Below, in pieces: positions 1,616-54,994 of a stretch of DNA of 64,000 nt. The notes beneath the pieces are model-generated. The model saw only the letters and a program-made list of their open reading frames with translations. It was not told where the DNA came from and did not search any database. Source of the DNA: an uncultured Gammaproteobacteria bacterium (GTDB lineage Bacteria > Patescibacteriota > Microgenomatia > CAYXHB01 > CAZYTL01); NCBI GenBank assembly GCA_964650355.1, contig CAZYTL010000006.1, forward strand, positions 11,019-75,018, read 5' to 3'. A program made the position numbers and the translations under genes. Positions within the stretch are counted from its first letter, which is position 1; every line of letters starts with the position of its first letter.

Positions 1616-1885
1616 TTACCAATTTTGTTTCCACTCACCGGTGATTAGTTTTTCTTTTTTGGATCTGCTCCAACCTTGAATTTGTTTTTCACGCATTCTG
1701 GCTAATTCCAAGTTTTCATATTCTTCCAGATAGATGATTTTTACAAATCCGTGTTTACTAGTGTATTGGGAACCCTTACCTGATTGATGTTGGAATTCAC
1801 GGTGAGCAGGATTCCAGGTCATTCCCGTGTAATATGATTTGTCCGCACATAAAGCAATACAGACATACCACTTCCATTTAGTCAT
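1616..1885 (-). CDS. GIY-YIG nuclease superfamily protein (YhbQ/UPF0213-like)
   Basis: WYVCIALCADKSYYTGMTWN...REFQHQSGKGSQYTSKHG...KIIYLEEYEN...EKQIQGWSRSKKEKLI matches the short stand-alone GIY-YIG family motif pattern. Confidence 0.75.
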   Translation of the reverse strand: MTKWKWYVCIALCADKSYYTGMTWNPAHREFQHQSGKGSQYTSKHGFVKIIYLEEYENLELARMREKQIQGWSRSKKEKLITGEWKQNW

Positions 1886-2123: not shown

Positions 2124-3119
2124 ATGAATAAGAAGCTTCGCCAACTGGGGATCGTCGCCACCGGCGTGGCGATCCTCGGGGTTTTTCTGATCGCCGGTAT
2201 CGCGTTTGCACAAGGACCCGCCGAGGAGGCGCGAACCGATGTCACCTTCTTAGCAAGAGGTGGCGCCTACACATTCACCGTCAAGAGTGGACACGAAGTC
2301 ACCTTGACGGACTTTCAAAACCCCGCCCCCCCAATGACGGCGACGCTCCGGGCGATGTCGCCGTTTAGTTTTACACTGACGGCGCCCGGTGAGCCCCCGG
2401 ACCAGGGAATCGGCAAGACGGAGTCGAGAACCGACCCATTCACGGCCGAGTTCCCGGTCGCCCCCGGGGCGACCATCGGAGTCGAGCGGGCTGATGTCCA
2501 AATCCGCCTGGAAGTGGCCGGTGCCGCCCATTTTGTTTTGGCGGATCGGCCTACCACGGAGCCCACGCCCACCCCGGCCGTCACACCCACCGTCCAGGTC
2601 GGCCGGACCCTCGTCCGCACCACCGGCCCCATCACCTTAACAAAAGGTGTGACGCACACAGTAGTGCTCACACCGAGCGAAGGGGAGCGGTGGGGGTTGG
2701 CCGTCCCCACTGGCACGGTCAGGGTCGAAATGGCCAGCGACGGGGCCTTTGGGTTCGGGGACAGTCTGGCGACCCCAGGCGCCGGGGGGTCGGCCACCCT
2801 CCACGCTGCCTTCGGCCCCGGCAGCGTCGACACCGCGCCAATCGTCACCACCCGGTCTGGGCAGAAGGTGACCGTCACCTTAGTGGCGGACACCGACGTG
2901 ATTGCCACCTGGGTGCGGGACGTGCCGGTGGCGGGCGAGACGCCGAAGGCCAAGCCCGGAACGATGCCGGGGACCTCGGGTGTTTTTGGCCCCAACGGAG
3001 GCAACCCCGAGGAGGGACCAGAGGTGGCCGGCCAGGATGAGCCTGACTTTCCGCCGCCATGGTGTGCTGGTGGCCTACTGCCCTTGGGGGCAGTGGTCTT
3101 CGCCAGTCGGCGGCGATAG
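2124..3119 (+). CDS. secreted Thr/Pro/Gly-rich surface protein with signal peptide and a C-terminal W-C-A-G-G/hydrophobic/RRR anchor (PEP-CTERM/MYXO-CTERM-like sorting signal); encoded in a high-GC island
   Basis: - A strong SD (GGAGG) sits 8 nt upstream of the ATG.
- The N-terminus (MNKKLRQLGIVATGVAILGVFLIAGIAFAQ) is a classic signal peptide.
- The C-terminus reads PPPWCAGGLLPLGAVVFASRRR.
- The region is markedly GC-rich compared with its flanks.
- Large minus-strand ORFs over the same region are treated as shadow ORFs. Confidence 0.6.
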   Translation: MNKKLRQLGIVATGVAILGVFLIAGIAFAQGPAEEARTDVTFLARGGAYTFTVKSGHEVTLTDFQNPAPPMTATLRAMSPFSFTLTAPGEPPDQGIGKTESRTDPFTAEFPVAPGATIGVERADVQIRLEVAGAAHFVLADRPTTEPTPTPAVTPTVQVGRTLVRTTGPITLTKGVTHTVVLTPSEGERWGLAVPTGTVRVEMASDGAFGFGDSLATPGAGGSATLHAAFGPGSVDTAPIVTTRSGQKVTVTLVADTDVIATWVRDVPVAGETPKAKPGTMPGTSGVFGPNGGNPEEGPEVAGQDEPDFPPPWCAGGLLPLGAVVFASRRR

Positions 3120-3217: not shown

Positions 3218-3478
3218 AGTAAGCATCCTTTTCCTCCGATATGCTTCGGAGGACCTGACCAGGTATTTTCGCTTTCACCACTAGCGGTGAAATGGTTTGA
3301 AAATATCCCTCAGGTAGCGGTAGTAGGGGCTTACTTGAGAAATCAATACCGTTTCGAAGTTTCCCCCAAAGGGACCTCTTCGGGGACGTTTCAAGATAAT
3401 CTATTGATTTTTCAAGGGAGCCTAAGAAAGTAGTTTCAGGCTGTTTGTTTCAAGTTAATATAACTGACTCTTTAACGA

Positions 3479-3560
3479 TTTATTCACTGAGCGCAACGTA
3501 GTGAAGTCGAAGTGTTGATAGGGCTTCGACTACGCCAAGTCAAACTTGGCTTCGCTCAGC
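3479..3560 (+). repeat. structured repeat element copy 1 (TTATTCACTGAGCG...CGCTCAGCC, with internal GTCGAAG/CTTCGAC and CCAAGT/ACTTGG hairpins)
   Basis: Nested inverted repeats read directly from the sequence. It is tandem with copy 2 and lies upstream of the 3672 operon. Confidence 0.5.
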
Positions 3561-3579
3561 CAATAATTACTATTATCCA

Positions 3580-3652
3580 CTTATTCACTGAGTGAGCGTA
3601 GCGAATCGAAGTAAAGGCTTCGATTCAGCAAAGCTTCACTCAGCCGATATTA
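3580..3652 (+). repeat. structured repeat element copy 2 (TTATTCACTGAGTGAGCG...CTTCACTCAGCC)
   Basis: Shares the 5' TTATTCACTGAG motif and the hairpin architecture with copy 1. It ends 20 nt before the start codon at 3672. Confidence 0.5.
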
Positions 3653-3671
3653 ATTTCCAAATTCAAAATTC

Positions 3672-6386
3672 ATGCCAAGTAAAGAAACATCATCATCATT
3701 CAGACGGCGGGTTTGGGAGCAAACCAGGGAAACCCTGCCACCGGCTCTGGCTGGTGCGGGTACCAGGCTGGCAGTGGATGCCGGACTGACCTATTTGGGC
3801 GCAGCTACCTTTCCGGCTACAGCAGTAGCGGTAGGGATCGGCAGTGCAGTGCGCAAAGGAATAGTGGAAGGCAGGAGAAGGAGAAAAAGTACCAAAGGGT
3901 TTTATAACTATCAAGTGACTCGCCATGAAAAAGCTCATGAGCAACCATGGAACGAGGGATGGATTGGAAAAAGATTAGTCAGAGGCGTGAAACGGTTAGC
4001 GGATAATGTGGCGCACGGAACTGAAATGAGGATTACCCAGAAAGCTTTTGATGTGAGGATGAACAAATTTATGGTTGAGTATGCGGCGGAGCACACAACC
4101 TCTTTAAAGGAAGATATTCCAGTTAGCTGCAGAGAATTAGCGATGAATGAATTAAGGAACGAGATAGCTCAGTTAGATCCTCAGATTTCTCGAGCCAGCG
4201 GAAAAGCAAAGCATGAGTTACTATTAGAAAAACACGAACCAATTGATAGCAGAACGAAAGATTTGATAGGAGAGCAGGCTGAAAAAGTAAAGGCTTTCTT
4301 CTTGAGAGTGGCCAGAACAGGTGCTGGGCCAGAAGCGTCAGAAGAGGTAGTGAGTCAATATGCGACTGAAATGGTCAAAGAGAAGTTAATTAATTTCTCT
4401 ATGGCGCATTTAACAGCGGGAAGGAATCAAGAGGTAAAGAATCGGGCTAACGACCTGTATATGGCTTACTACAGAGCCGCTGAAGATTTGGTAGGTGGAG
4501 AAGAGGAAATGAGGTCAATCAGAGATGAAATTTGGCAGGCGATTAAGAAAGAGAGAGCGAGCGCGGGTAAAAAAGCGGTGCGAAGAATAGCCGCAGTGCA
4601 ATTGGCAAAAGGACCGGTTAAATTTTACGCAGGCGGGTTCCTGGCAAGAAAAATAGTCCAAGGAGCCCAGTGGGCAAAAGAGACGTGGGGAATTTCCGCA
4701 CCTCAAGTTCCAGAACCAGTGCATGATGCGGCGCAAAAGGTAGTCAAGAAGGTAAAGCAGGTTTGGAACTGGGTGCGAGGTAAAGGGAATCAGCATCATG
4801 AATTGCCACCGCCTAGTGACCCCAGGAACGTGCAACCCGGAGGATTGGAGTCAGCCAGTTCACCCCTAGCTGATGGTGCCAGACCAGGAGCCGGAGGGCT
4901 GGTAAGAGGAACGGAAAATCAACCTGTTGTAATGGCGATTAATGTGCCTCAAGGAGGGACCCTGTCCGGTGCTTTGGCTGATGCAGGAGTGATTAGTCCG
5001 GATTTTACCCAAGCCGGCAGCGGAGAGGAATTTTTAAAAGCCGTCCAGGATTATTGTGTGGGTTGCGGCAAATTAACCCCTGAGCAACTACAGGAATTGC
5101 AGACAGCGATTAGAAAGGATCCCAACATTTCATTGGGGCAGTTATGGCATGAATATCCGGGGCCTTTTACAGGCTTAAATCATGTCGATCCCGGTGAGGA
5201 GATTGTAACTCACGTGAGTCACCGAGGGCCGAGTGTAGCCTATCCCCTACTCGAACACCCAGCAGTTAATCCGCCTGACCCGGCTCACATACCCGCACAG
5301 GAGGCGCCTATTTTATATAAATATGTGGAAGTGAATGAACACGGACAAAAAGTATTCAAATTGGTGCCGGTCAACTCTGCTGATCAACCAGCGGAGGCAG
5401 CGCACCAAATGGCCACGGAAACCCTGCCTCAACCGCTACAGACGATGGCGAATAATGCCCCGGCCAGGGTGCCGACAATGAATTCGACCGCGAACCTAAC
5501 GACAACGGAGCCTGAAGTTAAATATCGGTATGTTAAGGTAAGGGTTCACGGACAAGAAGAGTTCGTGTTGCAGCCGGTTTCTCATGATCCCTCATTACCA
5601 GAGAGTGCGGACAACGCCCCGACACAGGTGGTTGACCAGTCAACCCAAGCGAGGACTGAAACGGTTCTACCGGCACATAACAGACAACCAGTGAGGGTTG
5701 AACATCCCAGACCAGAGAATTTAACTAGACAACTGATTCATGGGGCACCAGAGAGACACAGCGAGGCCTTGGTTCAAGTTGATTTTAACCGGCCGGGAGC
5801 TAATGGGGGAATAAAATTTAGTTCAAACCTGCCTGAGTTAAGTCCTCCAGCTGGGGTGAGCATGAAATACCGACCAATTGCTTTTGGCCACTTTGACGTG
5901 TTTAACGGAACTAATTACGACGCGTTAAATAATCCAGCTCAGGATGGAATTACTGTTTATGGAAATACCCAATTGACTGGCTTACCAGGTGAGCGGGTTG
6001 GGCTGTTAACCTGTGCTGATTTAGGTAAATCCAGAACGGTGTTAGAGTTCGTGTCGGAATCAACCGTGGACCCTTTGACCCAAGTGGACGCAAATCCGAC
6101 AGTGTTAGTCAGTCATGCTGACGGCTGGTATCATCAAAATAAGCCTAACGAGAAAGAATGGTGGTATGCGCTGTTTGAAATATTCCGCCGAGCGGCAAAG
6201 AATGCTTATGAAGCAACCGGATCGACTTATGGACAATGGGTGGATTTAGACAGTGGAATTAAGGTTTATTTGACTAATCAAGAAGGGAACGTGTTAGTTT
6301 ATACAGCCCGTCGGGCTTTTGTGTTTGAAAATGACAATATTGATGATGTCGACATTAATGATGTGATGGAGATGTTGAAGAACTAA
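3672..6386 (+). CDS. large hypothetical protein (904 aa) with an internal tandem YxYVxVxxHGQxxFxLxPV repeat
   Basis: Long uninterrupted ORF. The N-terminal third is helical and charged. Two tandem about 45-aa repeats (ILYKYVEVNEHGQKVFKLVPVNSADQP and VKYRYVKVRVHGQEEFVLQPVSHDPS). No signal peptide and no recognised catalytic motif. Confidence 0.7.
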   Translation: MPSKETSSSFRRRVWEQTRETLPPALAGAGTRLAVDAGLTYLGAATFPATAVAVGIGSAVRKGIVEGRRRRKSTKGFYNYQVTRHEKAHEQPWNEGWIGKRLVRGVKRLADNVAHGTEMRITQKAFDVRMNKFMVEYAAEHTTSLKEDIPVSCRELAMNELRNEIAQLDPQISRASGKAKHELLLEKHEPIDSRTKDLIGEQAEKVKAFFLRVARTGAGPEASEEVVSQYATEMVKEKLINFSMAHLTAGRNQEVKNRANDLYMAYYRAAEDLVGGEEEMRSIRDEIWQAIKKERASAGKKAVRRIAAVQLAKGPVKFYAGGFLARKIVQGAQWAKETWGISAPQVPEPVHDAAQKVVKKVKQVWNWVRGKGNQHHELPPPSDPRNVQPGGLESASSPLADGARPGAGGLVRGTENQPVVMAINVPQGGTLSGALADAGVISPDFTQAGSGEEFLKAVQDYCVGCGKLTPEQLQELQTAIRKDPNISLGQLWHEYPGPFTGLNHVDPGEEIVTHVSHRGPSVAYPLLEHPAVNPPDPAHIPAQEAPILYKYVEVNEHGQKVFKLVPVNSADQPAEAAHQMATETLPQPLQTMANNAPARVPTMNSTANLTTTEPEVKYRYVKVRVHGQEEFVLQPVSHDPSLPESADNAPTQVVDQSTQARTETVLPAHNRQPVRVEHPRPENLTRQLIHGAPERHSEALVQVDFNRPGANGGIKFSSNLPELSPPAGVSMKYRPIAFGHFDVFNGTNYDALNNPAQDGITVYGNTQLTGLPGERVGLLTCADLGKSRTVLEFVSESTVDPLTQVDANPTVLVSHADGWYHQNKPNEKEWWYALFEIFRRAAKNAYEATGSTYGQWVDLDSGIKVYLTNQEGNVLVYTARRAFVFENDNIDDVDINDVMEMLKN

Positions 6387-6436
6387 ATATTGCCTTAGTT
6401 ATTTAAGTTATATACAATAAATATTGAATCTGAAAT

Positions 6437-9115
6437 ATGAATGATCAGAGCGGAGAACAAACACCACCTCCTCCAGATGTCCCACAGCCAGAAGGTGGAG
6501 GGCCAACGAGAGAGCAGGTAATGGCAAAGATCGAGCGCGAAGATAGGGATAAAAAGAAAAAAGAAGTACGGGATGAGATTGAAAACGGAACAGATAGAGA
6601 GGGAGCTTTGTTGCGAAATACTATTGTGGATGTGATTACTACGAATCCTGATGATAATCCTCCAATTCCTAATAAACGGATGGGGAGAATGAATGAATCA
6701 TATCAAAGAGCAAGAACACTGGCCGAAGACATGGATACCAATGCTAATCAGGTTTTGACGACCATCAGAGAATTTCATCGACACGCCAGACTGGGGAGAT
6801 ATGAATTGGATGTTAAAGTTCCTGAAGATGCATCACCTGAACAAAAGAAAGAAGCGATGAGGCAACAATTATTGGCAGACTTAGATAAAATGCCAACAGC
6901 AGCGGCCATGAGAGAACTTCAGCCATATGTGGATGAAAAAGCAGAAGCCAAACTAAAGGAAGATAAATTAAGGGAAACATTGAGTGGAGATCATGTTAAT
7001 AGGGCTAAAACAAGAAAAGCAGCTTATCAATTAGAACGGTCGGAAAATAGAGTTAAGGCCAAACAGAGAGCTTTGGCCATAGAGGCAGGAAGATTACACA
7101 CGGTAGAATTGCAATTAACTGATTTGCGTGAAGAAAGATTATCCTACGTGAGAGAGGAATTTGGCGGCATACCTGATGACCAACGCGATGAAAAGTACGA
7201 CCAAACTGTGCGCCGCTATAAGCAAGGTTTAGGGGAAAGAGACGCAAAGGCTCTCGAAGCGCTTGAGGATAAATTGGCGGAAGTGATTCCAGAAGAGGGT
7301 GAGACGGCTGAAGCAGGAGAAGGCGGAGAACCGGCTGAACCTGCCCCTTCGGAAGAGGCACCCCAAGAAGAAATAAAAGGGTTATTAACCCAAAGAACTA
7401 CGATTGAGGCAGAAATTGGACATCAGAGGCAACAATTAGAAGAAGCGATTCGAATTGCTGACGCGGAAGAGATTTGTAAGCTGGCACGTGAAATATCACA
7501 GAGAGAATTGGACTTATCAGCAAATAATGCCCTCCTGGATGCTTCAGCAGCCGGGTTGAGACGGCAGGCTGCTACTCATCAGTGGAACGAGGCTTTCCGA
7601 GGATTTGCTGATTCGTTTATTGCGGAAGGTGGTGACCCGAATCAAGAGTTCAAAGCACTCACCGGCGCGGCTAAGGAATCGGTGGCGTCATTAGCCAATT
7701 CGGGAAAAGAGTCAGCTAAAAGGATTTTTGGTAAATTAGCCAAACCATTAGGTGCAGCTGCCAGATGGACTGGGGAAAAATGGCGCACTTTTTGGACTGG
7801 AGTAGATAAATATGTAACAGAGAATGTGAGGCGAGCAGGTAGATGGGTAGGGGCAAGAATTAGACATGTGACAGAAGGAGCTCAGTCTAAAATTTCAGCG
7901 GCTGGAGGTCGTTTAGAAAGAGGGTTGACTGAAGTTAAAGACCGGTTTTATCGTACCCAGGATGCAATCCACTTAGGGGCCCATAAAGTGAAACGGTCTT
8001 TATTTGGAAGCGGAGCCTTGAAAAAACACCTCAAGGTGACTACAGGAAGGGCAATCGGGTATATTGCTTATTCTCCGGAGATGCAGGCCGATTTAAGAGA
8101 GAAAGTAAAAACCCGCAGGGAAGAGATTAAAGAGCAAAGGGCCGAATGGATTATAGAACAAGATGAAGAGTACAGAAAAAACCGAAAGGAGCATGACAGA
8201 TTTTCTAAGCTAGCCAGAATGGCTGAAAAAAGAGCCAATTTCCATGCAGAACGGGCTGGAGGTGAAGGTGAACCAGGGACAGTAGAAGAGGTTGAGGCGG
8301 GCGAACCAGGTTTGGATGATCTCGTAGAGAGAGTTGCCACTACTCAGCAGGAGGCTGAAGATATTTGGAATAATGTTCCAGAAGAGGAAAGAAGACGAGA
8401 GTTAAAAAAAGAAACTAAAGAGGCTATAAATATGGCAATTGACGAATCATTGGCAGCAAAAACTGCTTTAAGAGAACATTTAGTAACTTTAGTAACTGAA
8501 TTGCCAAGTGAAGCTGATAAAAGTGAAATTGAGAGCACAGTGGCTCAATTGAGAGAAATTGATGAAAAATTAAGGAAAAACGCCGTAAAGCAAGCAGATT
8601 ATGAATTTCCTATATTTGGCGGAGATGAGGGTAAAAAGGCTTTAATGGATGAGTATGATAAACAGTTAACAGCCTTAAGAGAAGCATATATAAAGGCTTC
8701 AGAAGCAGAACCTGAAGCAGAACCTGAGCGGTTAGATGAAGTAGTAGAAATGCAAGAAGAAGCTGAAAGAATGGTGGATGAACAGGGAAGAGACGAAATT
8801 CTTAGACAAACGGAAGCGCAAACAGATGACACTTTACTCCAATTAGAAGGATTGGTAGATAATAGTATAGCACCGGAAGCTCTGGATGTCCGCTCTTTGA
8901 TGGTCAATGAAAGAGCACTTCTCGTTCTGGCAAGACAAGCATCCGACCAGGAGAGAGGACAATTAAACCTGCTTGCTCGAGAGATGGAATCATTCTGGAA
9001 GGCAACCGAAGCTGCCAGATCAAGCACAGCACAAAATTTAAGAGATCAATCCATATCACAAGCAGCAGAGGCACGTGATAGAATAAAAGCGATGCTTGAT
9101 CAATTTAACCAGTAA
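6437..9115 (+). CDS. large hypothetical coiled-coil protein (892 aa), extremely E/K/R-rich
   Basis: Long ORF 50 nt after the previous gene. Its composition is dominated by Glu, Lys, Arg, Ala and Gln, typical of extended coiled coils. Confidence 0.7.
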   Translation: MNDQSGEQTPPPPDVPQPEGGGPTREQVMAKIEREDRDKKKKEVRDEIENGTDREGALLRNTIVDVITTNPDDNPPIPNKRMGRMNESYQRARTLAEDMDTNANQVLTTIREFHRHARLGRYELDVKVPEDASPEQKKEAMRQQLLADLDKMPTAAAMRELQPYVDEKAEAKLKEDKLRETLSGDHVNRAKTRKAAYQLERSENRVKAKQRALAIEAGRLHTVELQLTDLREERLSYVREEFGGIPDDQRDEKYDQTVRRYKQGLGERDAKALEALEDKLAEVIPEEGETAEAGEGGEPAEPAPSEEAPQEEIKGLLTQRTTIEAEIGHQRQQLEEAIRIADAEEICKLAREISQRELDLSANNALLDASAAGLRRQAATHQWNEAFRGFADSFIAEGGDPNQEFKALTGAAKESVASLANSGKESAKRIFGKLAKPLGAAARWTGEKWRTFWTGVDKYVTENVRRAGRWVGARIRHVTEGAQSKISAAGGRLERGLTEVKDRFYRTQDAIHLGAHKVKRSLFGSGALKKHLKVTTGRAIGYIAYSPEMQADLREKVKTRREEIKEQRAEWIIEQDEEYRKNRKEHDRFSKLARMAEKRANFHAERAGGEGEPGTVEEVEAGEPGLDDLVERVATTQQEAEDIWNNVPEEERRRELKKETKEAINMAIDESLAAKTALREHLVTLVTELPSEADKSEIESTVAQLREIDEKLRKNAVKQADYEFPIFGGDEGKKALMDEYDKQLTALREAYIKASEAEPEAEPERLDEVVEMQEEAERMVDEQGRDEILRQTEAQTDDTLLQLEGLVDNSIAPEALDVRSLMVNERALLVLARQASDQERGQLNLLAREMESFWKATEAARSSTAQNLRDQSISQAAEARDRIKAMLDQFNQ

Positions 9116-9139
9116 TTGACAAGTTAAGTTGTTTAAGTT

Positions 9140-9619
9140 ATGAATCAAAATCCACGCGATCGACTATTACAATTAATCATAGATTTACGAATGCCAATGT
9201 CTCCTGAGGAGGCTAAGGACCATATTGCTCATTTGAACGATGAAGAGGTTGGTTTATTGTTGCCCCGATATGAGGCAATCAAAGATTACGAAGATGCGGT
9301 TGATGCTGCAGCCCAAGAAGCTAATCCTGAAGAGTATGCCAAAATCGAGAATAAACTAAATCATGATTTATTGAGGACAAGACAAAGCGTTAGTTTGCGT
9401 AAAGAGCAGTTGCAAAAGGAAGCTGATGATGAGATGGACAAGATTCAGTTAAAAGCTGAAGCTGATATTAAAGATGTTTTGTACCAACAACAACATGAAT
9501 TAGCGGAAATCGAAGACGAATACAAAGATATATATACCAAGATGTCCACAGCGTTAATGAAAGCCCAAGCAAATAAAACTACCCAACAGGAAGCAACTCC
9601 GGAACAGCCTGAATCTTAA
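9140..9619 (+). CDS. hypothetical acidic coiled-coil protein (159 aa)
   Basis: Third gene of the same plus-strand operon. Acidic, helical composition. Confidence 0.55.
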   Translation: MNQNPRDRLLQLIIDLRMPMSPEEAKDHIAHLNDEEVGLLLPRYEAIKDYEDAVDAAAQEANPEEYAKIENKLNHDLLRTRQSVSLRKEQLQKEADDEMDKIQLKAEADIKDVLYQQQHELAEIEDEYKDIYTKMSTALMKAQANKTTQQEATPEQPES

Positions 9620-9658
9620 TTTTCTCCATCTACCACATAGTCAGATTTCAACTCTCCC

Positions 9659-10363
9659 CTATTCTGATTTTTCTTCTGAAGTTTCTTCTTTGGCCTCGCC
9701 TTTTTCTTCGGATTCGGCCTCTTTAGGTTCTTCCTCACCTTTTTCTTCAGTAGCTTCAACTTCTTCGGGGGAAGGAGCCGGAGCTTCCTCTTCCTCTTCT
9801 TGAGGCGCTTCTACTTTGGCAACGGTGGCTTCGGGTTCGGCCTGGAGAGTCACTTTCTTGGTGTCCACTTTAAGGTCGGAAACGAGTAAACTGTCCTCTA
9901 TTTCTACCAATTTGCTGATATCAAGTTCATATTTTTCAGGAAGATCTGTAGGCAAGGCTTCGACTTCGATTTCGTCCATGACCTGAACTAAGATGCCGCC
10001 CTTCTGCTCAACCGCCGGACTCTCCCCTACCAATTCGATGGGCACGTCAGCGGTGATTTTTTCTTTAAGGTCGACCTGGCGGAAGTCCACGTGTAAAGGC
10101 ATATCGGTAACGGGGTGGGTCTGAATCAAGTGGACCAAGGCGGGCCGAGGAGTTTTTTCTCCCTTAACAGTGAGTTCAATCAAGCCGGTATCACCTACCT
10201 GTTGATAGGTTTTAAGAAAATCTTTTTGGTCAACCTGAATGGCCTGGGACTTGACTTTGGAACCGAAGATGTTGGCGGGAAGCAGGCCTTGCGCCCGAAG
10301 TTTTTTGACTTGGCGGCCGGTAATTTTGCGAGGTTCAGAGGTAAGAGGGTGAAGGTTAGGCAT
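9659..10363 (-). CDS. rplY: 50S ribosomal protein bL25 (Ctc-type) with acidic C-terminal tail
   Basis: LPANIFGSKVKSQAIQVDQKDF...HLIQTHPVTDMPLHVDFRQV is the bL25/Ctc signature, followed by a Glu-rich tail. Confidence 0.8.
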   Translation of the reverse strand: MPNLHPLTSEPRKITGRQVKKLRAQGLLPANIFGSKVKSQAIQVDQKDFLKTYQQVGDTGLIELTVKGEKTPRPALVHLIQTHPVTDMPLHVDFRQVDLKEKITADVPIELVGESPAVEQKGGILVQVMDEIEVEALPTDLPEKYELDISKLVEIEDSLLVSDLKVDTKKVTLQAEPEATVAKVEAPQEEEEEAPAPSPEEVEATEEKGEEEPKEAESEEKGEAKEETSEEKSE

Positions 10364-10424
10364 AAGTTGCGAATTTACTCGATGTAAAGCGAATTAGCAC
10401 AAATAGAAATATGTTAAGGTAAGT

Positions 10425-13400
10425 TTATAGAGATCTGATTTTGTGTTTGTTAAAACTGACGTCGATGGTTTGGTCCTGTGATAATGAGATATTGTACCTG
10501 ATGGTCTGGTTATCGGTCAAGTGTGGGGCAGGACCAGATTGAAGATCCGAAGATGACTGGGTAGTGTTGGTGGGTTGAAAACCGACCGGATACTGAACCG
10601 TAAGCCAATAAGGGTCATTTTGGCTGCCCGCTTGTTTGGAAATTTGCAGTCGGTAGGTAAACTGATTAGGCAAAGACTGAGAGGGCAATGAATAGTCAAC
10701 GCGTACCAGATAATACGTTTGAGGTGGAATAGGAGCCAGAAAACCATAGACTTCATAACCATGTTCCTGAGTATGATCGATAAAATCCAAATCAATAGCC
10801 GGCAAGTCAGCAGAAGACTGATCAGATTCGGGACTCCAATGAGGGTCTGTGACCACACCTAACTGAAGGTTTTGCAACGCAGTACCCAAAGGTAAATAAA
10901 GGCGGAGATAGTTTTTGTAAGCGCCTCCTAGCCAGGAATCTGGTTGAGACTGGTTATGGTAAAAAATTTGCAAGGTTTCTTGAGGAGACGCGGTTTCTTG
11001 AAGTTTGATGTGGTGAAAGATCTGCCGCTCGAGGTACTGGTTGACTTTGTTAACGCCTAGGTTCGCTTCGACGATGAGGAGATGATCTGTAATTAAGTTA
11101 CTCCGGGCACTAAGTACCTGGGTGTTTTCCTGTAATTGTTTAACCTGAGATAGCAAAGGAGCAATATTGGACGTGGTATATGAATAAGGCTGCAAGGAAC
11201 CGCTCCAGCCGAGCTGGGAAATTAGGTCTTGGGCGGGTAGATGATCAAAATAAGCTAGAGCGTGTTTGGATTGAAAACCCGTGTTCAAGGCAGTGGCTAG
11301 CTTTACCCAATCTAATTGAGGACCGTGTTTTAATTTATAGAGGATAGCGTCAGCCACCAGACTAAGATGGTCCCCTTTCTGATGAGACCCGGGAAAGTGA
11401 TCCCCTTCTGACTTTTGTTGCAAGTATTGATAAAAATTATCAGCAGTCAGGGTAATCTGCTGATCGGGTAAATATACAGAATTCATGGCGCCGACCAGAT
11501 TCTGTATAAAGTCCACATCCACGGCCAAAACTCCGGATACTGATTGTTTAAGCTCTTTTTTGACAAACCATTGCAGCTTTTCTGACGTAGTAGGAAAATC
11601 CGGATCCCAATTGGCATCGCGCAGATACCAGCTGGCTTCGCCTAAATATTGATGAATAGGGCCGGGCGGCTCAACATAACCCAGTAACTGCCCATCAGCG
11701 TCGTAGACATCATGAATAGTCCAATTAGTTAATTGTCCCTGATCAAGAGTAAGTAGTCCGACTGAGCCGATAAATCCCCCAGTAGGCCGAAGTTCGCGAT
11801 TATTCTGAAAGATAACCAAATAGGTCTGGGGCTTTTGGTAACCGGCAAGAGCAGGATATTGACCCAGGCTATAAATGAAGGTGGCTAGCTGACCCCTAAC
11901 AAGAGGCAACTTGACTTTCAAACTGGTGTAGGTAGGTTGAGAAACGACTTGGCGAAGATAAAAAGGCAAATGATCAGGCAATACCGCTTGCAACTCACCT
12001 AGTAAGGTTTGGGTTTTTGTCAGATGCATACGAGCCTGATCCAAAGTGACCAAAGGATCAGTTTTCAGGCTAGGATCAAGCGTGGTGCGCAGAGAAGTCT
12101 GGAGTAGCAGCAACGAAGAGGAAGACTCAAAGATGGTTTCACTACTCAGTTGAGCCAGACGAATATGGGCCAAAGCCTGATCAAACTTTGTCCCTAAATA
12201 AGGAAGATGCGAAGCAAAAGACAAAAAGCCTAAACCCTGTCCCAGCTGCTGAAAACGGGCTTGAGCAAAGTCCGATTCCTGAGCAGCAGCCGTAAAGTTC
12301 CCGCTTTGTATTTGTTGAAGACTTTGATTTAAAAATAAGCCGCCTTGAATTAAGGTATAACCGAACACTGTGGGAGGAACGATAAGAGTCAAAACGATAA
12401 GGACCACCAAGGCTGGTTTCCAGGCATAAGATAAATTAGGTACTGCAGGTAAACGTCTAGATACAGGTCCAAATAATCTAGATAGTCCAAAGGTAAATCG
12501 CGGAGGTTTAAGTTTAGAAAAAGTCTTTTTAAAATTGAGAAATAAGTTGTTTTTGGATAGCTGTGACTGAGAATCAGATGGCGCGAACTGTCCAGAAAAG
12601 GCGGATTGTTGCTCTAAAACTTTCAAGTACTCATAGTGCATTCCATCCCAAGGCTGCGAAGCCGGCTTAGTCAATAAAATAGGCGGTTTAAGCCAATCAC
12701 CCATCATTTGCAACCCATGCTCAAGAGCAATTTCAGGCTGCCAATGAAGTCGTTGGCAGGTTCGTCGAATAAGTCGCGGATCAATCATGCTAGCCGCCGA
12801 AGGAGGTTGCGCGCTATAAGAAAAGCTTGTCCGGTGAGGCACAATTTGCTGAAGCAAGTGCAGAAAACTTTCCAGAGGATACGAATGATGATGAGCGAGA
12901 ACAAATTGTTGATGTTTAGTATTAGACATGAGAGTAATTTTGATAAGCGCTTGAACAGCATCCTGTACATGAAGAGGATAGATTTTAGTATGCGGAGAAA
13001 CTGAGAGTTGTCTTCTGGTGACTCCAAATTTAACAGCCGAAAAAACCTGCGACAGAGGTTGTTGACCATTTAGGTCGTAATTCGACCCGTAACAGTCTGC
13101 AAGAAGTACTGTGCGGAAATTGATCTGAGGTTTCCGGTCAAGAGAATTAAGCTGCTGAAAAATAAAAGGTAAGTGTAGATCAGTAAATGGAAATGGGGGT
13201 GTTTTTAATTGAGGATTAAAGTAAGGAGAAACATAGGTTATTTTAATGTGTGAGTTAGGCTCGTAAGGCAAAAGTTGCAACTGATGACGCAGTAAGGAAG
13301 TAACTTGTGCCTGATTAAGTTGAGACGCGGAAAAAGAACTAGCATATAAGTCAGTGAGAAAAAGATAGTCTGGTATAAGATCCGACTGTATCAATGGTGA

Positions 13401-13664
13401 TTGCGGAAATCCTTCAGAATGTAAATTGGAGGAGAAAAAGTATTTTGAAGAAATTAACGATTCTGGCAAGACTGTCTGAGTGGTGAAGATTGATGGAAGT
13501 CCAAGAACATAAATCCCCTGTTTAATTAACTCGTGAGCTAAATAATACCCAAGAAACTGATCTACAGCAGTAACTAATGCTAATGGATGAGGTTGTGAAG
13601 AGGATTGAGAAAGACTTGATTTTGAATGCGGAAAATACTGAGATAAGGATTCGGCAGGATGCAT
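10425..13664 (-). CDS. DUF4012-domain membrane protein with N-terminal (degenerate) NAD-epimerase-like domain
   Basis: The C-terminal half contains NNRELRPTGGFIGSVGLLTLDQGQLTNWTIHDVYDADGQ, typical of DUF4012. There is a single TM segment (PALVVLIVLTLIVPPTVFGY) and an N-terminal Rossmann-like region (ALVTAVDQFLGYY...). Confidence 0.65.
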   Translation of the reverse strand: MHPAESLSQYFPHSKSSLSQSSSQPHPLALVTAVDQFLGYYLAHELIKQGIYVLGLPSIFTTQTVLPESLISSKYFFSSNLHSEGFPQSPLIQSDLIPDYLFLTDLYASSFSASQLNQAQVTSLLRHQLQLLPYEPNSHIKITYVSPYFNPQLKTPPFPFTDLHLPFIFQQLNSLDRKPQINFRTVLLADCYGSNYDLNGQQPLSQVFSAVKFGVTRRQLSVSPHTKIYPLHVQDAVQALIKITLMSNTKHQQFVLAHHHSYPLESFLHLLQQIVPHRTSFSYSAQPPSAASMIDPRLIRRTCQRLHWQPEIALEHGLQMMGDWLKPPILLTKPASQPWDGMHYEYLKVLEQQSAFSGQFAPSDSQSQLSKNNLFLNFKKTFSKLKPPRFTFGLSRLFGPVSRRLPAVPNLSYAWKPALVVLIVLTLIVPPTVFGYTLIQGGLFLNQSLQQIQSGNFTAAAQESDFAQARFQQLGQGLGFLSFASHLPYLGTKFDQALAHIRLAQLSSETIFESSSSLLLLQTSLRTTLDPSLKTDPLVTLDQARMHLTKTQTLLGELQAVLPDHLPFYLRQVVSQPTYTSLKVKLPLVRGQLATFIYSLGQYPALAGYQKPQTYLVIFQNNRELRPTGGFIGSVGLLTLDQGQLTNWTIHDVYDADGQLLGYVEPPGPIHQYLGEASWYLRDANWDPDFPTTSEKLQWFVKKELKQSVSGVLAVDVDFIQNLVGAMNSVYLPDQQITLTADNFYQYLQQKSEGDHFPGSHQKGDHLSLVADAILYKLKHGPQLDWVKLATALNTGFQSKHALAYFDHLPAQDLISQLGWSGSLQPYSYTTSNIAPLLSQVKQLQENTQVLSARSNLITDHLLIVEANLGVNKVNQYLERQIFHHIKLQETASPQETLQIFYHNQSQPDSWLGGAYKNYLRLYLPLGTALQNLQLGVVTDPHWSPESDQSSADLPAIDLDFIDHTQEHGYEVYGFLAPIPPQTYYLVRVDYSLPSQSLPNQFTYRLQISKQAGSQNDPYWLTVQYPVGFQPTNTTQSSSDLQSGPAPHLTDNQTIRYNISLSQDQTIDVSFNKHKIRSL

Positions 13665-17071: not shown

Positions 17072-17860
17072 TTAATTGGCAGAATTATAATACTTTAGCG
17101 CTCGATGCCAGGTGAGATGAGCCAAGAACATGGTTACACAGGCGGCAAAAGGTACGACAAGCCAGAGCACGATAGGGGAGCGACGCATTAAAGTGAATAC
17201 AGGAATGGTGGTGATGATAATAGTAGGGAAGAGGACAGTGGCAAGGAGTTTGGCTAGACCGGAATAGACAGTGCTGGGGTATTGACCGTAAACCCAAGTG
17301 ATATTGAGTACGTTATTAGTAAAGCCGGACTTTTCACCATGCGGGGCAATCAGGAACAGATAAGTAAACCAGATGCCATAGAGTAATAAACTACTAATGG
17401 GAACGGCGATGAGCAAGAAAAGCAGAAGAGCTAAAGAACTTAAGACATTTAATTGATTAAAGAAGTAAAATGAGGCGATGAATCCGCCGATCAAGTCGGT
17501 GAAGGCAAACAAATTAGGTTTGTAAGTAGAAACTAACCAAAGATGATTCAGAGGTTTGATGAGCATGAAATCCATTTGATTGGTATTAAAAGCCTGATAA
17601 GCGATGAAATTAATATTGATCGAGCAAACAATCCAATACAGTCCTTTGACCGCGTGAAAGAAACTTAAAAAGGCCAGAAGTTCCGTTCTGGAATATTGAA
17701 GATTAAATCCGGTGATAATCACGTCCAGAAAAATATAACTGAGCAGGATATAAGCGGAGTGGGCGAGGAAGGAGAATAAAGCCCACAGAGGCTTGTAGGC
17801 CAGTTGATCCTGGACGGCAATATTGAGAAATTTGAGGTAGAGTTTAAGGTATTTGGTCAT
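17072..17860 (-). CDS. ABC-2 family transporter permease-like membrane protein
   Basis: Six hydrophobic segments. Composition and length resemble ABC-2 type permeases. Paralogous to 20318-21097. Confidence 0.45.
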   Translation of the reverse strand: MTKYLKLYLKFLNIAVQDQLAYKPLWALFSFLAHSAYILLSYIFLDVIITGFNLQYSRTELLAFLSFFHAVKGLYWIVCSININFIAYQAFNTNQMDFMLIKPLNHLWLVSTYKPNLFAFTDLIGGFIASFYFFNQLNVLSSLALLLFLLIAVPISSLLLYGIWFTYLFLIAPHGEKSGFTNNVLNITWVYGQYPSTVYSGLAKLLATVLFPTIIITTIPVFTLMRRSPIVLWLVVPFAACVTMFLAHLTWHRALKYYNSAN

Positions 17861-17886
17861 AAATTTTAAATTCGAAATTGGAGCGA

Positions 17887-18669
17887 TTACCCTCCTACTG
17901 CTTCATAAAGATAAAGCACTCGATTCCAGATATAACGACTAATGATGCTTAAAATGGCCAACCAAACAATTCCGTTAAGGAATACCGGGAGAAAGGTGAC
18001 GTTTTGATTAAATACGGCTTCAATAGGCACGGACACGATCCACCGAGTAGGTAAGATTCTGACCAGCCATTGATAATTGTCGGGTAAAAGCCATAAAGGG
18101 AGTTGAGCGCCAATTAAAAAGGGGAGCAAGATGTCAAATATTAAATATAGTGAATTAGGCCTGATCCACACAAAGGCAATACATCCAAGCAAAAAGCTGA
18201 TCAGCAACGAGATCGTCCAACCGATCACCACTAAAGGTAAGGCCATGATAATTTGGCTGAAGTTTAGAGGGAGTTGCAGCACAGTACCAAATTGCCAGCT
18301 GAGTAAATACAAAGCAATTAAATTAACAAATAAGTTAATCAGGCCGCTAGCCAAAATGTTGCATATGGTTATGCCTATATAGGGGAAAGGCTGGAGCAAA
18401 TATTGGGATAGTTCTCCCCGATGAATATCATGAGCCATGCGATGATAAAAACGCTCGCTAGCGAAGCCGCTAATGATGCCAGCAAGCACATAAAACTGCC
18501 ATAAATGTTGGAAAACATCCTGCGGGCGGAAGGCTTTCCACACGCTAAGGGTAAAAAGTAGAGAGATAAAATCTGAAGTTAGCCAAAGGATCAGGTCGGT
18601 GCGATGTTCAAAGATGATACTGAGACGCAATTGAAACGTGAGCCAGCCGACTCTGAAAAACCTAACCAT
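17887..18669 (-). CDS. ABC-2 family transporter permease-like membrane protein
   Basis: Polytopic membrane protein adjacent to 17072-17860. Paralogous to 21145-21996. Confidence 0.45.
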   Translation of the reverse strand: MVRFFRVGWLTFQLRLSIIFEHRTDLILWLTSDFISLLFTLSVWKAFRPQDVFQHLWQFYVLAGIISGFASERFYHRMAHDIHRGELSQYLLQPFPYIGITICNILASGLINLFVNLIALYLLSWQFGTVLQLPLNFSQIIMALPLVVIGWTISLLISFLLGCIAFVWIRPNSLYLIFDILLPFLIGAQLPLWLLPDNYQWLVRILPTRWIVSVPIEAVFNQNVTFLPVFLNGIVWLAILSIISRYIWNRVLYLYEAVGG

Positions 18670-18731
18670 TAGTTAGCAGTATAGCAAATTCACCCGTTTA
18701 TAAATTTCCAGAGCGATGATATACTTAATTT

Positions 18732-18995
18732 ATGGCAACGCAAAAAGAAAAGATAGAAAAAAAGCAACTAGAAGTAAAGGCTGACACCTTTACGGGTAGC
18801 CTATACTCCCAATTTGTGGGCGTAACAGTTACTGATTTAGACATTACCCTGGAGTTTGTATTTATCAATACCCGAACAGGGAAACACGGTGAGGTGGTTT
18901 CAAGAGTTACTTTGCCCAGACAAGCGGGTGAAGGATTAGCGAAAGTAATCATGGAGTTAATTGAAAAACATGACGCGCGTAAAAAGGAGGTATAA
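18732..18995 (+). CDS. DUF3467 family protein
   Basis: LYSQFVGVTVTDLDITLEFVFIN...VSRVTLPRQAGEGLAKVIMELIEKH matches the DUF3467 pattern. AGGAGG SD precedes the next gene. Confidence 0.5.
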   Translation: MATQKEKIEKKQLEVKADTFTGSLYSQFVGVTVTDLDITLEFVFINTRTGKHGEVVSRVTLPRQAGEGLAKVIMELIEKHDARKKEV

Positions 18996-18997
18996 AA

Positions 18998-19252
18998 ATG
19001 ACCTACACAATTCCTTATGAGGAGCTGATTGAAAGCACTCAAGAAAATTACAATTTAATAGATCAATTTCCATATTCAGCTAAGGTTGGTTATGTGAGTG
19101 CTATGCCTAATGATAAATACTCATTTATGGAAACCTTTACTTTTCCAGATTTGAACCAAATAGAACATTCTTTGACAGCCTCCGGCAAATATTCGAAAAA
19201 ACTGGTACGGGAAATTATTTCTGGTCTAAAAACCCTTCCGGAATATGATTAG
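18998..19252 (+). CDS. hypothetical protein (possible antitoxin partner of the downstream RelE-like toxin)
   Basis: 84-aa ORF located 18 nt upstream of a RelE/ParE-like toxin gene. No recognised fold. Confidence 0.35.
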   Translation: MTYTIPYEELIESTQENYNLIDQFPYSAKVGYVSAMPNDKYSFMETFTFPDLNQIEHSLTASGKYSKKLVREIISGLKTLPEYD

Positions 19253-19270
19253 GCCAAAGGCCTACATGAG

Positions 19271-19522
19271 ATGAATAACATTACAGCCAATGTTGAAATT
19301 ACAAATAATGCTAGACAGAAAGCCAGAAAATTCAACTTGAAAAAGAAGTTTAACAAGCAAGTTGGTTTTCTGGAGTCTAATCCGAGACATAACTCTCTAA
19401 ACTTCAAGCCCTTGGAATCAGCCCATGGCATATGGAGATTTAGGATCGATAAGCACTTCTGGGGCCTAGTGATAAAGACTTCAAATGGTTTAAGAGTATA
19501 CGATGTGATTAAACATCCTTGA
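19271..19522 (+). CDS. type II toxin-antitoxin toxin, RelE/ParE (StbE) family
   Basis: NPRHNSLNFKPLESAHGIWRFRIDKHFWGLVIKTSNGLRVYDVIKH matches the RelE/ParE pattern NPxxG..LkG...g.wr.RiGdyRiiY.i.dd...v..igHRkdvY. Confidence 0.6.
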   Translation: MNNITANVEITNNARQKARKFNLKKKFNKQVGFLESNPRHNSLNFKPLESAHGIWRFRIDKHFWGLVIKTSNGLRVYDVIKHP

Positions 19523-19547
19523 GACGAGGTCCCGTTACTGTTAATAA

Positions 19548-20303
19548 TCAATAAATTCGTTGATTTAATTGATAGAGTAGGGAAGTGAAGAAGAGTAAGT
19601 TGAGACAATGCTTCTTAAGTAGTCGCTGAGCTTCTTGGTAGCGAAGTTGAAGGTGATATTTTTGACTTAGGTTAAGGACTTGGCGGGCAGATTTCTGGGC
19701 CAGGGAATGGTTATTAGTGGCTAGATAATATTCGGCCAAGGTAAGTTGGGCATGGGTGAGCCAGATGTGGAGATACAATGAGTCTGACTGGTGTTGGGAT
19801 TCCCGGGTTAAAGTTTTGACGGCTTGGCGCAGTTCTTTTAAAGCCAAGGAGGATCGCTGTTGATTGGTATGTACTCCCCCTAAATAGCTTAAGGCATAAG
19901 CTGCCAAGGCCTGATTCTGCTGTTGCTGCGCCAAGCTTAGTGCTTGTTTGAACTTAGATTCGGCTAAAGAAAGGTTTTTTAAATCTTTGGCTGCCTGTCC
20001 GCAGTGAAGGATGGAGGAAACCTGACCTTCGCCAGTAGAATTAATCGAAGCCTTATCAAACAAGAAGTAGGCGATTTTTATTAAGAAGGTCTGTTGCCAA
20101 TGATGTTTATGATAGTTTTTAAAAGCAATTCCCAGGTGCCCGTAAGCGCCAGCCAACCCTTCCCGGTCACGGATCAGGGAATAGTAAATAATGCCGACCA
20201 GGAATACGGGCATGGACAAAAGCAGGCCCCAGTCTTTTTCTCTAATGGTTTCCCCGGTCAAAAGAAGTTTTCTTTGTTCGTGGGAAGTTAGTTTTTTAGT
20301 CAT
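19548..20303 (-). CDS. TPR-like helical repeat protein
   Basis: Helical repeat composition (AAYALSYLGGVHTNQQRSSLALKELRQAVK...). Positional paralog of 15507-16382. Confidence 0.45.
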   Translation of the reverse strand: MTKKLTSHEQRKLLLTGETIREKDWGLLLSMPVFLVGIIYYSLIRDREGLAGAYGHLGIAFKNYHKHHWQQTFLIKIAYFLFDKASINSTGEGQVSSILHCGQAAKDLKNLSLAESKFKQALSLAQQQQNQALAAYALSYLGGVHTNQQRSSLALKELRQAVKTLTRESQHQSDSLYLHIWLTHAQLTLAEYYLATNNHSLAQKSARQVLNLSQKYHLQLRYQEAQRLLKKHCLNLLFFTSLLYQLNQRIY

Positions 20304-20317
20304 AATTAATGGGACCG

Positions 20318-21097
20318 TTAGCTGCTGGCTGAGGCATATTGGGTAACGGCATAGCGCCAGTATTTAAGACTTAACAAGAGGGCGGCTAAGCCGATGAACA
20401 AAGAGCCAACAATCACATCCGGATGTGTGAGACCCAGGAGGGCTTTGGCAGGAATGGTCATCATGATACCCACGGGAATGACGGTGGTAAAGATGAGATT
20501 GATGGGCCAGCGGTACACGTCAATGGGGATTTTGCCTAAAGAGGTGACGTCACGGTAAATCATGACAGCGTGATCTACCTCAGTGGTAGTAATGCCCAGG
20601 CCGAGGACAAAGATGTGAAAGGCGGTGGCTAGAGTAAGTGCGTTGACGAGTAGTAAGAGAAAGATACCCAAATTCAACCAGGAAGTAGTTACCTGAGGGA
20701 TGATCCAGAGGGTGACGCCTATCAACGGGAGGAGGACGCTAAAGTCAAGGATGTCAATGCCACCGAGAAGGGAGCGGGCCAGGGCATTAAAAGGTTTAAG
20801 AAAGTAGTAGTCAAGTTCGCCGTTAACCACCCGAGAGCGGAAGCGGTACACATCGCGGAAGAGAAACTGGGAGCCGGTATCCACTAAGTTAAAGACCAGA
20901 AAGAAGAAGATGGTTTGGGTGACAGTATAGCCGGATAGGGTCTGAGTACGGGAAACCAGCAGATAAAGGAAGTAGATAAAGGTAATGATACGGGCCACTT
21001 TGCCAAAGATAAAGAGTACGGCGCCGTAACGGGAATAGAGAGCGCCGGAAATGGCTTGGGAATTGATGATCCAGAGGATTTTGAGATTACGGGACAT
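20318..21097 (-). CDS. ABC-2 family transporter permease-like membrane protein
   Basis: Polytopic membrane protein. Paralog of 17072-17860. Confidence 0.45.
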   Translation of the reverse strand: MSRNLKILWIINSQAISGALYSRYGAVLFIFGKVARIITFIYFLYLLVSRTQTLSGYTVTQTIFFFLVFNLVDTGSQFLFRDVYRFRSRVVNGELDYYFLKPFNALARSLLGGIDILDFSVLLPLIGVTLWIIPQVTTSWLNLGIFLLLLVNALTLATAFHIFVLGLGITTTEVDHAVMIYRDVTSLGKIPIDVYRWPINLIFTTVIPVGIMMTIPAKALLGLTHPDVIVGSLFIGLAALLLSLKYWRYAVTQYASASS

Positions 21098-21144
21098 AAG
21101 TTAAATTTCTAATCCGCCAGTTGGCGGACTAATTACTAAGGTAT

Positions 21145-21996: not shown

Positions 21997-22020
21997 ATAT
22001 TGAAAGGAGACGAAGGAGGT

Positions 22021-45908: not shown

Positions 45909-45910
45909 CT

Positions 45911-50124: not shown

Positions 50125-50499
50125 AGTTGTTTGTTTTTGTTTACGACCTATAGTCTACATTATGGAAGAAGATTTGTCAACTTTTAATTTGTTTCAGATT
50201 TAGATTTGATGTTTTAAGGAAAAATTAATAGTTGACAGGGGAGAAGAAATACAGCATATTAGGGAATTGAAAAGACTTCTTCTGCCCGATGCTTCTTTTC
50301 ACAAGTTTGTACCGATGACACTGATCGGGATCAGCGCAGACGGTATCAATTTTTGTTTATACATAATTAAGGTAATTTACTTCACTGGCCGCAATCGGAG
50401 GTGATTGTCTGGAATTAGGAATTATGAATTAGGGGATAGTTGTTGATTGATTCATGATTCTTGATTCATAATTTCATAATTCTTTTTTCGACTTTTATG

Positions 50500-51921: not shown

Positions 51922-51932
51922 AGAATCGTTGT

Positions 51933-51960
51933 GCGTTTCGACGTTTCACGTTTCAACGTT
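51933..51960. repeat. GAAACG/CGTTTC-heptamer repeat block flanking the four-helix-bundle gene (left)
   Basis: gcgtttcgacgtttcacgtttcaacgtt. A direct copy is at 52350-52379 and an inverted copy at 52390-52431. Confidence 0.5.
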
Positions 51961-51987
51961 GGTGGTTTTTGTGTTTAAAAGTTATTT

Positions 51988-52305: not shown

Positions 52306-52348
52306 CAAATGATTTTTAAGTTAGAAAAATCTTTAATAAAGTAAAGTA

Positions 52349-52433: not shown

Positions 52434-52454
52434 TTAGAGAGGAGGTGAGAAAAA

Positions 52455-53450: not shown

Positions 53451-53503
53451 AATGTTTCCAGGTTTTTATTAGCTGTTATCTGCTCGGAAGGAGGTGTATG
53501 TAA

Positions 53504-54986: not shown

Positions 54987-54994
54987 GGTTAGTT

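Follow-up and report, generated by a model that had tools for sequence, protein, structure and literature searches.

Sortases (MEROPS C60, PF04203) are the chief route by which the surface of Gram-positive-type cells is decorated, and they serve both as drug targets and as protein-engineering tools. To our knowledge the strand order is the same in all known sortase classes, each of which has a short membrane anchor, and among them are enzymes dedicated to particular substrates, such as the class C pilin sortases, class B sortases and the class E sortases with LAXTG. Here we describe a locus in a 64,000-nucleotide stretch of contig CAZYTL010000006.1 (assembly GCA_964650355.1; the whole stretch is called the window), in which a gene for a 331-amino acid (aa) secreted protein is followed by the genes of a 904-aa protein, A, and of two further proteins, B and C. 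We propose that A is a divergent, rewired sortase-like enzyme dedicated to the upstream 331-aa protein and that B and C, helical proteins specific to the lineage, are partners of its N-terminal module (N-module), a reading for which we judge the case to be evenly balanced.

The likeness to sortases lies in structural matches and in the company of the gene. For both types of C-terminal domain found in the A family the best structural matches are sortases of classes A-F; both carry conserved Cys, His and Arg/Lys residues at strand ends and, as with the substrate-dedicated sortases, an adjacent gene encodes a signal-peptide protein bearing [LM][PA]xT[GS]. The differences are several. The A family has no detectable sequence similarity to sortases, and in the type 1 domain, the one carried by A, the His strand comes only after the Cys/Arg hairpin; the canonical order is His-Cys-Arg. 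The putative catalytic domain makes up the last ~210 aa of a protein of 900-1260 aa, behind a membrane/helical module of ~330 aa, a middle domain and repeats, unlike canonical sortases, which have a short N-terminal anchor only. In addition, several of the A-linked sorting-signal tails are short and amphipathic, whereas sortase substrates end in a full transmembrane segment and a basic tail. A more general analogy is offered by the YkuD-type L,D-transpeptidases, in which a small beta-rich Cys/His domain with transpeptidase activity, placed behind a wall-binding domain, works on the outer side of the membrane. A described counterpart of the architecture of A was not found in a literature search; judged by structural matches and context A is sortase-like, and judged by sequence profile and by the order of its triad it is not.

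Gene layout and modular build of protein A

The four genes of the locus are the following.

2124-3119, plus strand: 331-aa secreted protein, probable substrate, with a Sec signal peptide (..AFA before QG), C-terminal TMPGTSG, a spacer, a hydrophobic stretch and an RRR tail
3672-6386, plus strand: protein A, 904 aa, modular core protein of the locus (open reading frame (ORF) call, twelve relatives, modular alignment)
6437-9115, plus strand: protein B, 892 aa (ORF call)
9140-9619, plus strand: protein C, 159 aa, acidic and helical (ORF call)

The genes of A, B and C are co-directional, with intergenic gaps of 50 nt (A-B) and 24 nt (B-C), and a convergent bL25 gene lies downstream of that of C. 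An earlier interpretation made from the letters of the DNA (the sequence-only reading) had placed these three genes of 904, 892 and 159 aa exactly where we find them; its coordinates left out the gene at 2124-3119, the upstream neighbour that is conserved across the A family. The same arrangement was found in an independent Logan assembly, and the flanks hold ordinary chromosomal genes (bL25, RNase H, transketolase, a DnaK-GrpE-HrcA cluster, NUDIX proteins and a subtilase). A scan for promoters and terminators gave counts close to chance.

The description of the three proteins as unrecognisable and undescribed stands, as none of them has a family match above noise in Pfam, NCBIfam, PHROGs, PADLOC or PDB sequences, and when 1.84 billion representative proteins were scanned exhaustively with HMMER, 12 relatives of A were returned, eight of them below E 1e-10. 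Word-indexed homology searches with A, with the 13-sequence family alignment and with the substrate alignment recovered the query itself only. GTDB genome contigs gave no match to the C-domain or N-module alignments, JGI metagenome contigs gave none to the N-module or protein C alignments, and a viral-contig match (L014) spanned 24 residues only and was treated as spurious; hence all relatives of A come from Logan/NCBI assemblies. The suggestion that the genes form a cytoskeletal, effector or defence system finds no support: there is no PADLOC or PHROG match, A is not a coiled coil, and its informative part is a Cys/His domain with sortase-like structural matches. As to anti-phage defence, A, B, C and the 331-aa protein have no PADLOC family at E<=0.1.

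Within A, the following parts can be told apart, all on the plus strand.

3672-4706: N-module, aa 1-345, with a hydrophobic segment rich in Gly/Ala, a helical stretch and another conserved segment that is only weakly hydrophobic
4926-5246: conserved middle domain, aa ~419-525, ~110 aa
5316-5579: beta-hairpin-like repeats found by regular expression, YKYVEVNEHGQKVFKLVPV (nt 5316-5372) and YRYVKVRVHGQEEFVLQPV (nt 5523-5579), within Pro-rich linkers
5754-6386: C-terminal type 1 Cys/His domain, aa 695-904, with the Cys/Arg hairpin before the His strand; sortase-like
6012-6014, 6033-6035 and 6114-6116: catalytic candidates Cys781, Arg788 and His815

The family as a whole is modular: a shared N-module (~330 aa), the middle domain and the repeats are joined to one of two alternative C-terminal domains, type 1 in A, P0008, P0011, P0017 and P0019, and type 2 in six proteins, among them P0010 (aa 578-837). 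The N-module, for which there is no Pfam or PDB-sequence match, is kept in all 12 relatives and is the sole part of A present in L003, the locus closest to that of the window. By hydropathy its first Gly/Ala-rich segment, which the sequence-only reading had missed, covers aa 33-65, or aa ~24-65 (nt 3741-3866) when delimited more widely; across relatives this segment is 30-47 aa long, with the consensus AG.GTRIA..AGL..GAA..PAT. The second conserved segment lies at aa ~305-335 and reaches transmembrane-like hydropathy in P0010, P0011 and P0016.

The middle domain is found in 9 of the 13 family members and has the consensus L.V..GGS.S.AL..AG...GSG..F...VL....GK.....A..L..A....P..SFAQL......F.GL..V.PG. 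A LysM identity for aa 419-525 was considered and rejected, as no LysM or other Pfam match was obtained at E<=1 in the 13 members and a PDB profile search was not significant. The repeats had been described as two tandem units of about 45 aa with the pattern YxYVxVxxHGQxxFxLxPV; they are in fact units of ~19 aa (aa 549-567 and 618-636) that lie 69 aa apart, and relatives of A carry two to four similar ones. Nor does the label of coiled-coil protein suit A, in which 23% of the residues are charged, no excess heptad signal is seen, the linkers are Pro/Gly-rich and the C-terminus is beta-rich.

A sortase-like domain and its secreted neighbour

Sortase-like motifs (GLLTCAD..SRT, PTVLVSHADG and the hairpin IKVYL..G..LVY) were read in the alignments before the structural search was made. 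Cys781 and His815 are invariant in type 1, and Arg788 is present in four of the five sequences; in type 2 an invariant His is followed ~100 aa later by an invariant Cys (FCGRS) and then by a conserved [RK]Y in the last strand. The AlphaFold2 model of aa 695-904 of A, built on the five-sequence alignment, is confident (predicted local distance difference test score (pLDDT) 82.3, predicted template modelling score (pTM) 0.84), which bears out the earlier mention of a C-terminal globular region; the type 2 model reached a pLDDT of 71.3. The best and the only consistent structural matches of both types are sortases of classes A-F, the matches being weak for type 1, and from its model the sister domain, type 2, clearly appears to have a sortase fold. 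Aligning the two types to each other with hhalign joined 79 columns, which begin at the His strand, take in the E..R helix and end with the beta hairpin; the alignment is weakly supported (E 0.01, probability 4%). In the type 1 model Cys781 is at the end of strand 81-89, the following strand starts with Arg788, and His815 comes after strand 116-119, and therefore the Cys/Arg hairpin precedes the His strand; a rewired strand order of this kind would explain why a sequential aligner recovers the fold only in part. We suggest that the C-terminal domain of A is a highly divergent sortase-fold enzyme that would use Cys781, His815 and probably Arg788. The motif peptide considered for A(695-904) is AKPGTMPGTSGVF.

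The 331-aa protein is the only ORF of the window with an LPXTG-like C-terminal signal, and it combines this signal with a signal peptide in a gene adjacent to that of A. The loci of ten A relatives were read. A signal-peptide protein of ~300 aa is encoded directly upstream and on the same strand in seven of the ten loci with a full-length A-family gene (window included), and six of these seven proteins carry an LPXTG-like C-terminal motif. The motifs of the upstream proteins are these.

Window: MPGTS
L002: MPDTG
L006: MPSTG
L010: LPQTG
L011: LAETG
L007: PATAG/PQTAG

The 331-aa protein is homologous to the upstream protein of L002 (30% identity, E 9e-19), through which those of L006 and L008 are linked to it as well. 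The alignment retains M281-P282-x-T284 of the 331-aa protein, and a six-way alignment of upstream proteins keeps the C-terminal [LM][PA]xT[GS], which is degenerate in L008. L007 has two upstream proteins, unrelated to that of the window, that end in PATAG/PQTAG, a transmembrane segment and RRR. In L004 the region upstream of the A homologue is off the contig.

The substrate-like gene also stands out by its GC content at third codon positions (GC3), which is far above that of its neighbours in five loci: 0.76 in the window (2124-3119; window median 0.48), 0.64 in L002 (6262-7227; neighbours 0.26-0.30), 0.85 in L006 (395-1348; neighbours 0.38-0.43), 0.80 in L008 (6083-7012; neighbours 0.36-0.40) and 0.68 in L011 (8672-9559; neighbours 0.30-0.35). 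In L002, L006, L008 and L011 the excess is limited to the ORF and ~50-100 nt on its 3' side; in the window it also takes in ~150 nt of 5' leader. Translational codon bias was rejected as the cause, as the shifts in relative synonymous codon usage show a poor correlation with the shifts of DnaK (r 0.21) and G-ending codons are enriched as well. A foreign island or an assembly chimera was likewise rejected, as the arrangement is repeated in the independent Logan assembly and the excess recurs in the four other loci. Expression, mRNA-level selection and biased conversion are candidate causes of this excess.

We propose the following course of events, modelled on the dedicated pilin- or substrate-specific sortases. 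Protein A would be anchored in the membrane via its N-terminal hydrophobic hairpin, and its middle domain, hairpin repeats and Cys/His domain would be displayed outside the cell, where the Cys/His domain would cut the MPxT[GS] signal of the upstream protein after the Thr and join the protein to the cell wall or a further subunit. As the enzyme must meet a secreted substrate, aa ~400-904 would have to lie outside, and therefore the number of membrane passes would have to be odd: the hydrophobic segment of 30-47 aa would form a hairpin, and the second segment would add a single pass.

Several observations weigh against this proposal, and the topology is the main objection. The passes required appear plausible in P0010, P0011 and P0016 and weak in A, where the Kyte-Doolittle hydropathy of the second segment stays below 1.0. 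Furthermore, A has no signal peptide, and strongly basic residues (RRRRK) follow its hydrophobic segment; taken together with the weak second segment, the Cys/His domain could therefore be cytoplasmic. As to the enzyme itself, the order of residues in A is Cys-Arg-His, whereas in canonical sortases, and in type 2, His comes before Cys, and the Cys motif of A is GLLTCAD rather than TLxTC. Neither A nor its 12 relatives match PF04203 at E<=1, profile searches against PDB sequences found no sortase, and hhalign comparisons with three real sortases were not significant (E 0.12 and 0.53). A Foldseek search of the PDB with the model of aa 695-904 gave no match. As to the substrate, L005 and L009 have no substrate-like gene upstream of the A homologue, and canonical sortase genes lie 5-9 kb from the A homologue in two loci.

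L005 4338-5045, minus strand: canonical PF04203 sortase gene
L011 22562-23311, plus strand: canonical PF04203 sortase gene

These organisms therefore carry both ordinary sortases and an A-family protein, and their canonical sortases could process the substrate instead. Finally, L003, a fairly close genome, is the only one by which B and C are linked to A.

Some of these observations are what one would expect if the C-terminal domain were another Cys/His hydrolase, a peptidoglycan- or host-directed peptidase on a long stalk, the upstream protein being merely co-located and processed by a housekeeping sortase. The invariant Cys/His pair in an order unlike that of sortases, the weak type 1 matches and the negative Foldseek search, the canonical sortases in related genomes, and a middle domain and repeats that could serve in binding the wall or a host are all in keeping with such a hydrolase. 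Yet the sister type 2 domain, set in the same architecture, clearly appears to have a sortase fold, and the adjacency to LPXTG-like genes recurs in very divergent loci; we consider the hydrolase unlikely, and it is nonetheless the alternative that survives best.

Proteins B and C and the remaining alternatives

Protein B has neither a signal peptide nor a transmembrane segment and is built of acidic helical arms around an amphipathic centre (aa 401-550) that is basic (net +17) and contains Trp/Gly. It had been called an extreme E/K/R coiled coil; the richness in E/K/R (36% charged) and the compatibility with a helix are borne out, and the heptad periodicity is only moderate, with 12 windows of 3.5-residue periodicity above the 95th percentile compared with 3.1 expected, and one above the 99th. 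The absence of Walker motifs had been noted correctly, as there is no Walker A and no hhhhD[DE], and an identity as an SMC/Walker ATPase finds no support in Walker A/B motifs or in Pfam or NCBIfam matches. Protein C is acidic, as had been said (pI 4.6), and matches DivIVA (PF05103) with 16.6 bits (E 0.008), below the gathering cut-off of 28. Neither B nor C has a significant match among PDB sequences.

Each of the two proteins has a single relative, and both relatives are in L003: for B the product of 7656-10595 (24% identity over 579 aa, E 6e-18) and for C that of 10653-11078 (35% identity, E 2e-22). As the sole homologue of C begins at the position of Met18 (MPMSPEEAK / MPLTPEEAK), the start of C may be Met18 at nt 9191, which would give a protein of 142 aa and a B-C gap of 75 nt.

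L003 is the closest relative of the window, with 61% identity for bL25, 38% for the N-module of A, 35% for C and 24% for B. Its A is a 367-aa N-module only, followed by B, C and the convergent bL25, and the locus contains no sortase-like domain and no substrate-like gene. In the eight more distant readable loci B and C are absent beside the A homologue. The synteny in relatives that the sequence-only reading had named as a check is thus kept in part: the order A-B-C-bL25 is preserved in L003, and B and C are missing from the eight distant loci. From this pattern of co-occurrence it follows that the substrate gene goes with the sortase-like domain, and B and C with the N-module.

Two candidates for distant partners were rejected. 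A B/C-like pair in L002 (11463-13148, minus strand; a 130-aa acidic protein and a 422-aa Ala-rich protein) found no support by hhalign, and an ORF downstream of the A homologue in L004 (at least 600 aa, running off the contig) is not B-like. On the strand opposite to the A homologue P0008, the L002 pair is found downstream of it, and the 422-aa helical protein of the pair has a Gly/Ala hydrophobic centre resembling the N-module segment of A.

Among described proteins, coiled-coil membrane scaffolds of the DivIVA, EzrA and Scy/FilP type offer an analogy for B and C, which are like them in being charged helical proteins with no enzymatic motifs and in the weak DivIVA-like match of C, and by analogy with these the basic amphipathic centre of B could bind the membrane. 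They differ from these scaffolds in that their scores are below the family thresholds, no homology is found and the heptad periodicity is modest. The whole of A-B-C might be a cytoskeletal or coiled-coil scaffold (DivIVA/EzrA/SMC-like), with no part in it for the Cys/His domain or the upstream gene, a notion that accords with the charge, the helical compatibility and some excess of 3.5-residue periodicity in B, with the sub-threshold DivIVA match and with the persistence of B and C beside the N-module in L003, which has no Cys/His domain. It is difficult to reconcile with an A that is not a coiled coil, with a DivIVA score of 16.6 bits for a cut-off of 28, with a B that has its one relative in L003 and no PDB or Pfam match, and with the absence of B and C from the eight other readable A-family loci, and we regard it as decidedly improbable.

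Under the proposal of a dedicated sortase-like enzyme, B and C would be cytoplasmic, fast-evolving proteins co-transcribed with A that stay with the N-module even where the sortase part is absent, and they would most likely bind the N-module as a scaffold or positioning device. A further-reaching version, which we put forward as doubtful, is that the locus represents a new class of sortase machine in bacteria of the candidate phyla radiation (CPR) type, in which a ~900-aa transmembrane protein would carry, at its outer end, a sortase barrel with a rewired order of strands, and its cytoplasmic N-module would be held by the dedicated helical B/C scaffold; the anchoring or polymerisation of one abundant surface protein, the product of the upstream gene with the anomalous GC3, would then be positioned or regulated from inside the cell.

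In a rare and fast-evolving family, two different C-terminal domains are found behind a common set of N-module, middle domain and repeats, which might also suggest a polymorphic effector or toxin, with an N-terminal delivery module, interchangeable C-terminal warheads (types 1 and 2) and accessory or immunity genes as neighbours. As the two C-terminal types are related in fold and have a core in common, unlike a diverse toxin repertoire, as no small conserved immunity-like gene lies downstream in the loci read, as there is no PADLOC or toxin-family match, and as the conserved neighbour is upstream and secreted, we hold this to be very improbable. An insertion of mobile or phage origin, such as a tape-measure-like protein with a wall-hydrolase domain, is the least probable by far, for although a GIY-YIG gene and palindromic repeats lie nearby and tape-measure proteins likewise have hydrophobic Gly-rich segments, long helices and a C-terminal enzyme domain, there is no PHROG match, no real viral-contig match (the single one being that of 24 aa) and no other phage gene, and the context is one of chromosomal housekeeping genes (bL25, GreA, AspRS, rpoB, TruB) in all loci. 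Taken together, the conserved upstream gene and the structural matches, which are with sortases only, are accounted for better by the dedicated sortase-like enzyme than by any of these alternatives.

Repeats, surrounding genes and wider meaning

Between the substrate gene and that of A lies a structured region, and a small nuclease gene is found further upstream.

3460-3671, plus strand: two tandem hairpin-forming palindromic units (~3480-3567 and 3582-3649)
1616-1885, minus strand: small GIY-YIG gene

The sequence-only reading had pointed to tandem structured repeats upstream of A, and indeed two strong hairpin units are found, the RNA of nt 3460-3671 folding with -65.7 kcal/mol (z -5.87 compared with shuffled sequences). 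The region also contains a direct repeat with a spacing of 101 nt, and one of its arms recurs in inverted form at 1553-1597. An insulator, a terminator or a mobile repeat are candidate roles for these units. Palindromic repeats (TTATTCACTGAG...CTCAGCC units) at 1453-1958 and 3313-3650 flank the block that holds the GIY-YIG and substrate genes, and a 45-50-nt arm at 1548-1597, which adjoins the GIY-YIG gene, is an inverted copy of 3522-3571 with 88-91% identity. The repeats look like an element of the miniature inverted-repeat transposable element/repetitive extragenic palindrome (MITE/REP) type associated with a GIY-YIG nuclease.

The loci of the relatives hold rpoB, AlaRS, FtsK, RNase J, GreA, AspRS and TruB. 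In the window, a large uncharacterised envelope-type protein, of 1079 aa and with DUF4012, is encoded beside the A-B-C genes at 10425-13664 (minus strand), adjoining bL25. Further off, an unusual repeated transporter cluster occupies 17072-23016 (minus strand): its four ABC2_membrane_6 permease genes are paralogues arranged as two pairs, at 17072-18669 and 20318-21996, and it also encodes one TPR protein and one with DUF4349. At 44910-47002 (plus strand) the gene of an MvdD-type ATP-grasp protein (PF21068 and RimK) precedes that of a 363-aa protein of no family; the two may be a cassette for a graspetide/microviridin-like ribosomally synthesised and post-translationally modified peptide. A run of probable secreted or surface proteins occupies 50461-59695 (plus strand), namely a VWA protein, one with a camelysin-like signal (M73), one with a Lamin-tail domain, an RTX nonapeptide-repeat protein and two with no family. 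At 62878-63555 (minus strand) a 225-aa protein contains a Kunitz/BPTI domain (PF00014, E 9e-14), a domain that is characteristic of animals and out of the ordinary for a bacterial genome.

Every 2-kb bin of the window (1-64000) has a positive GC skew (0.02-0.34), whatever the orientation of the genes, and the cumulative skew rises monotonically. The same strand disparity has been described in Microgenomates of the order UBA1400 (PMC7143001). The persistent positive skew is consistent with a genome of the CPR/Microgenomates type.

If the proposal is true, a sortase-fold domain unseen by sequence profiles, with reordered catalytic strands and a large fused module, would extend this enzyme family, and censuses of sortases that are based on profiles would miss such domains. 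Should B and C truly couple to the N-module, they would make up an unusual cytoplasmic scaffold attached to a wall-anchoring enzyme. The organism appears to be an ultrasmall bacterium of the CPR/Microgenomates type, and its surface proteins probably mediate attachment to hosts. The enzyme-substrate pair proposed here would be a testable handle on how one such surface protein is installed.

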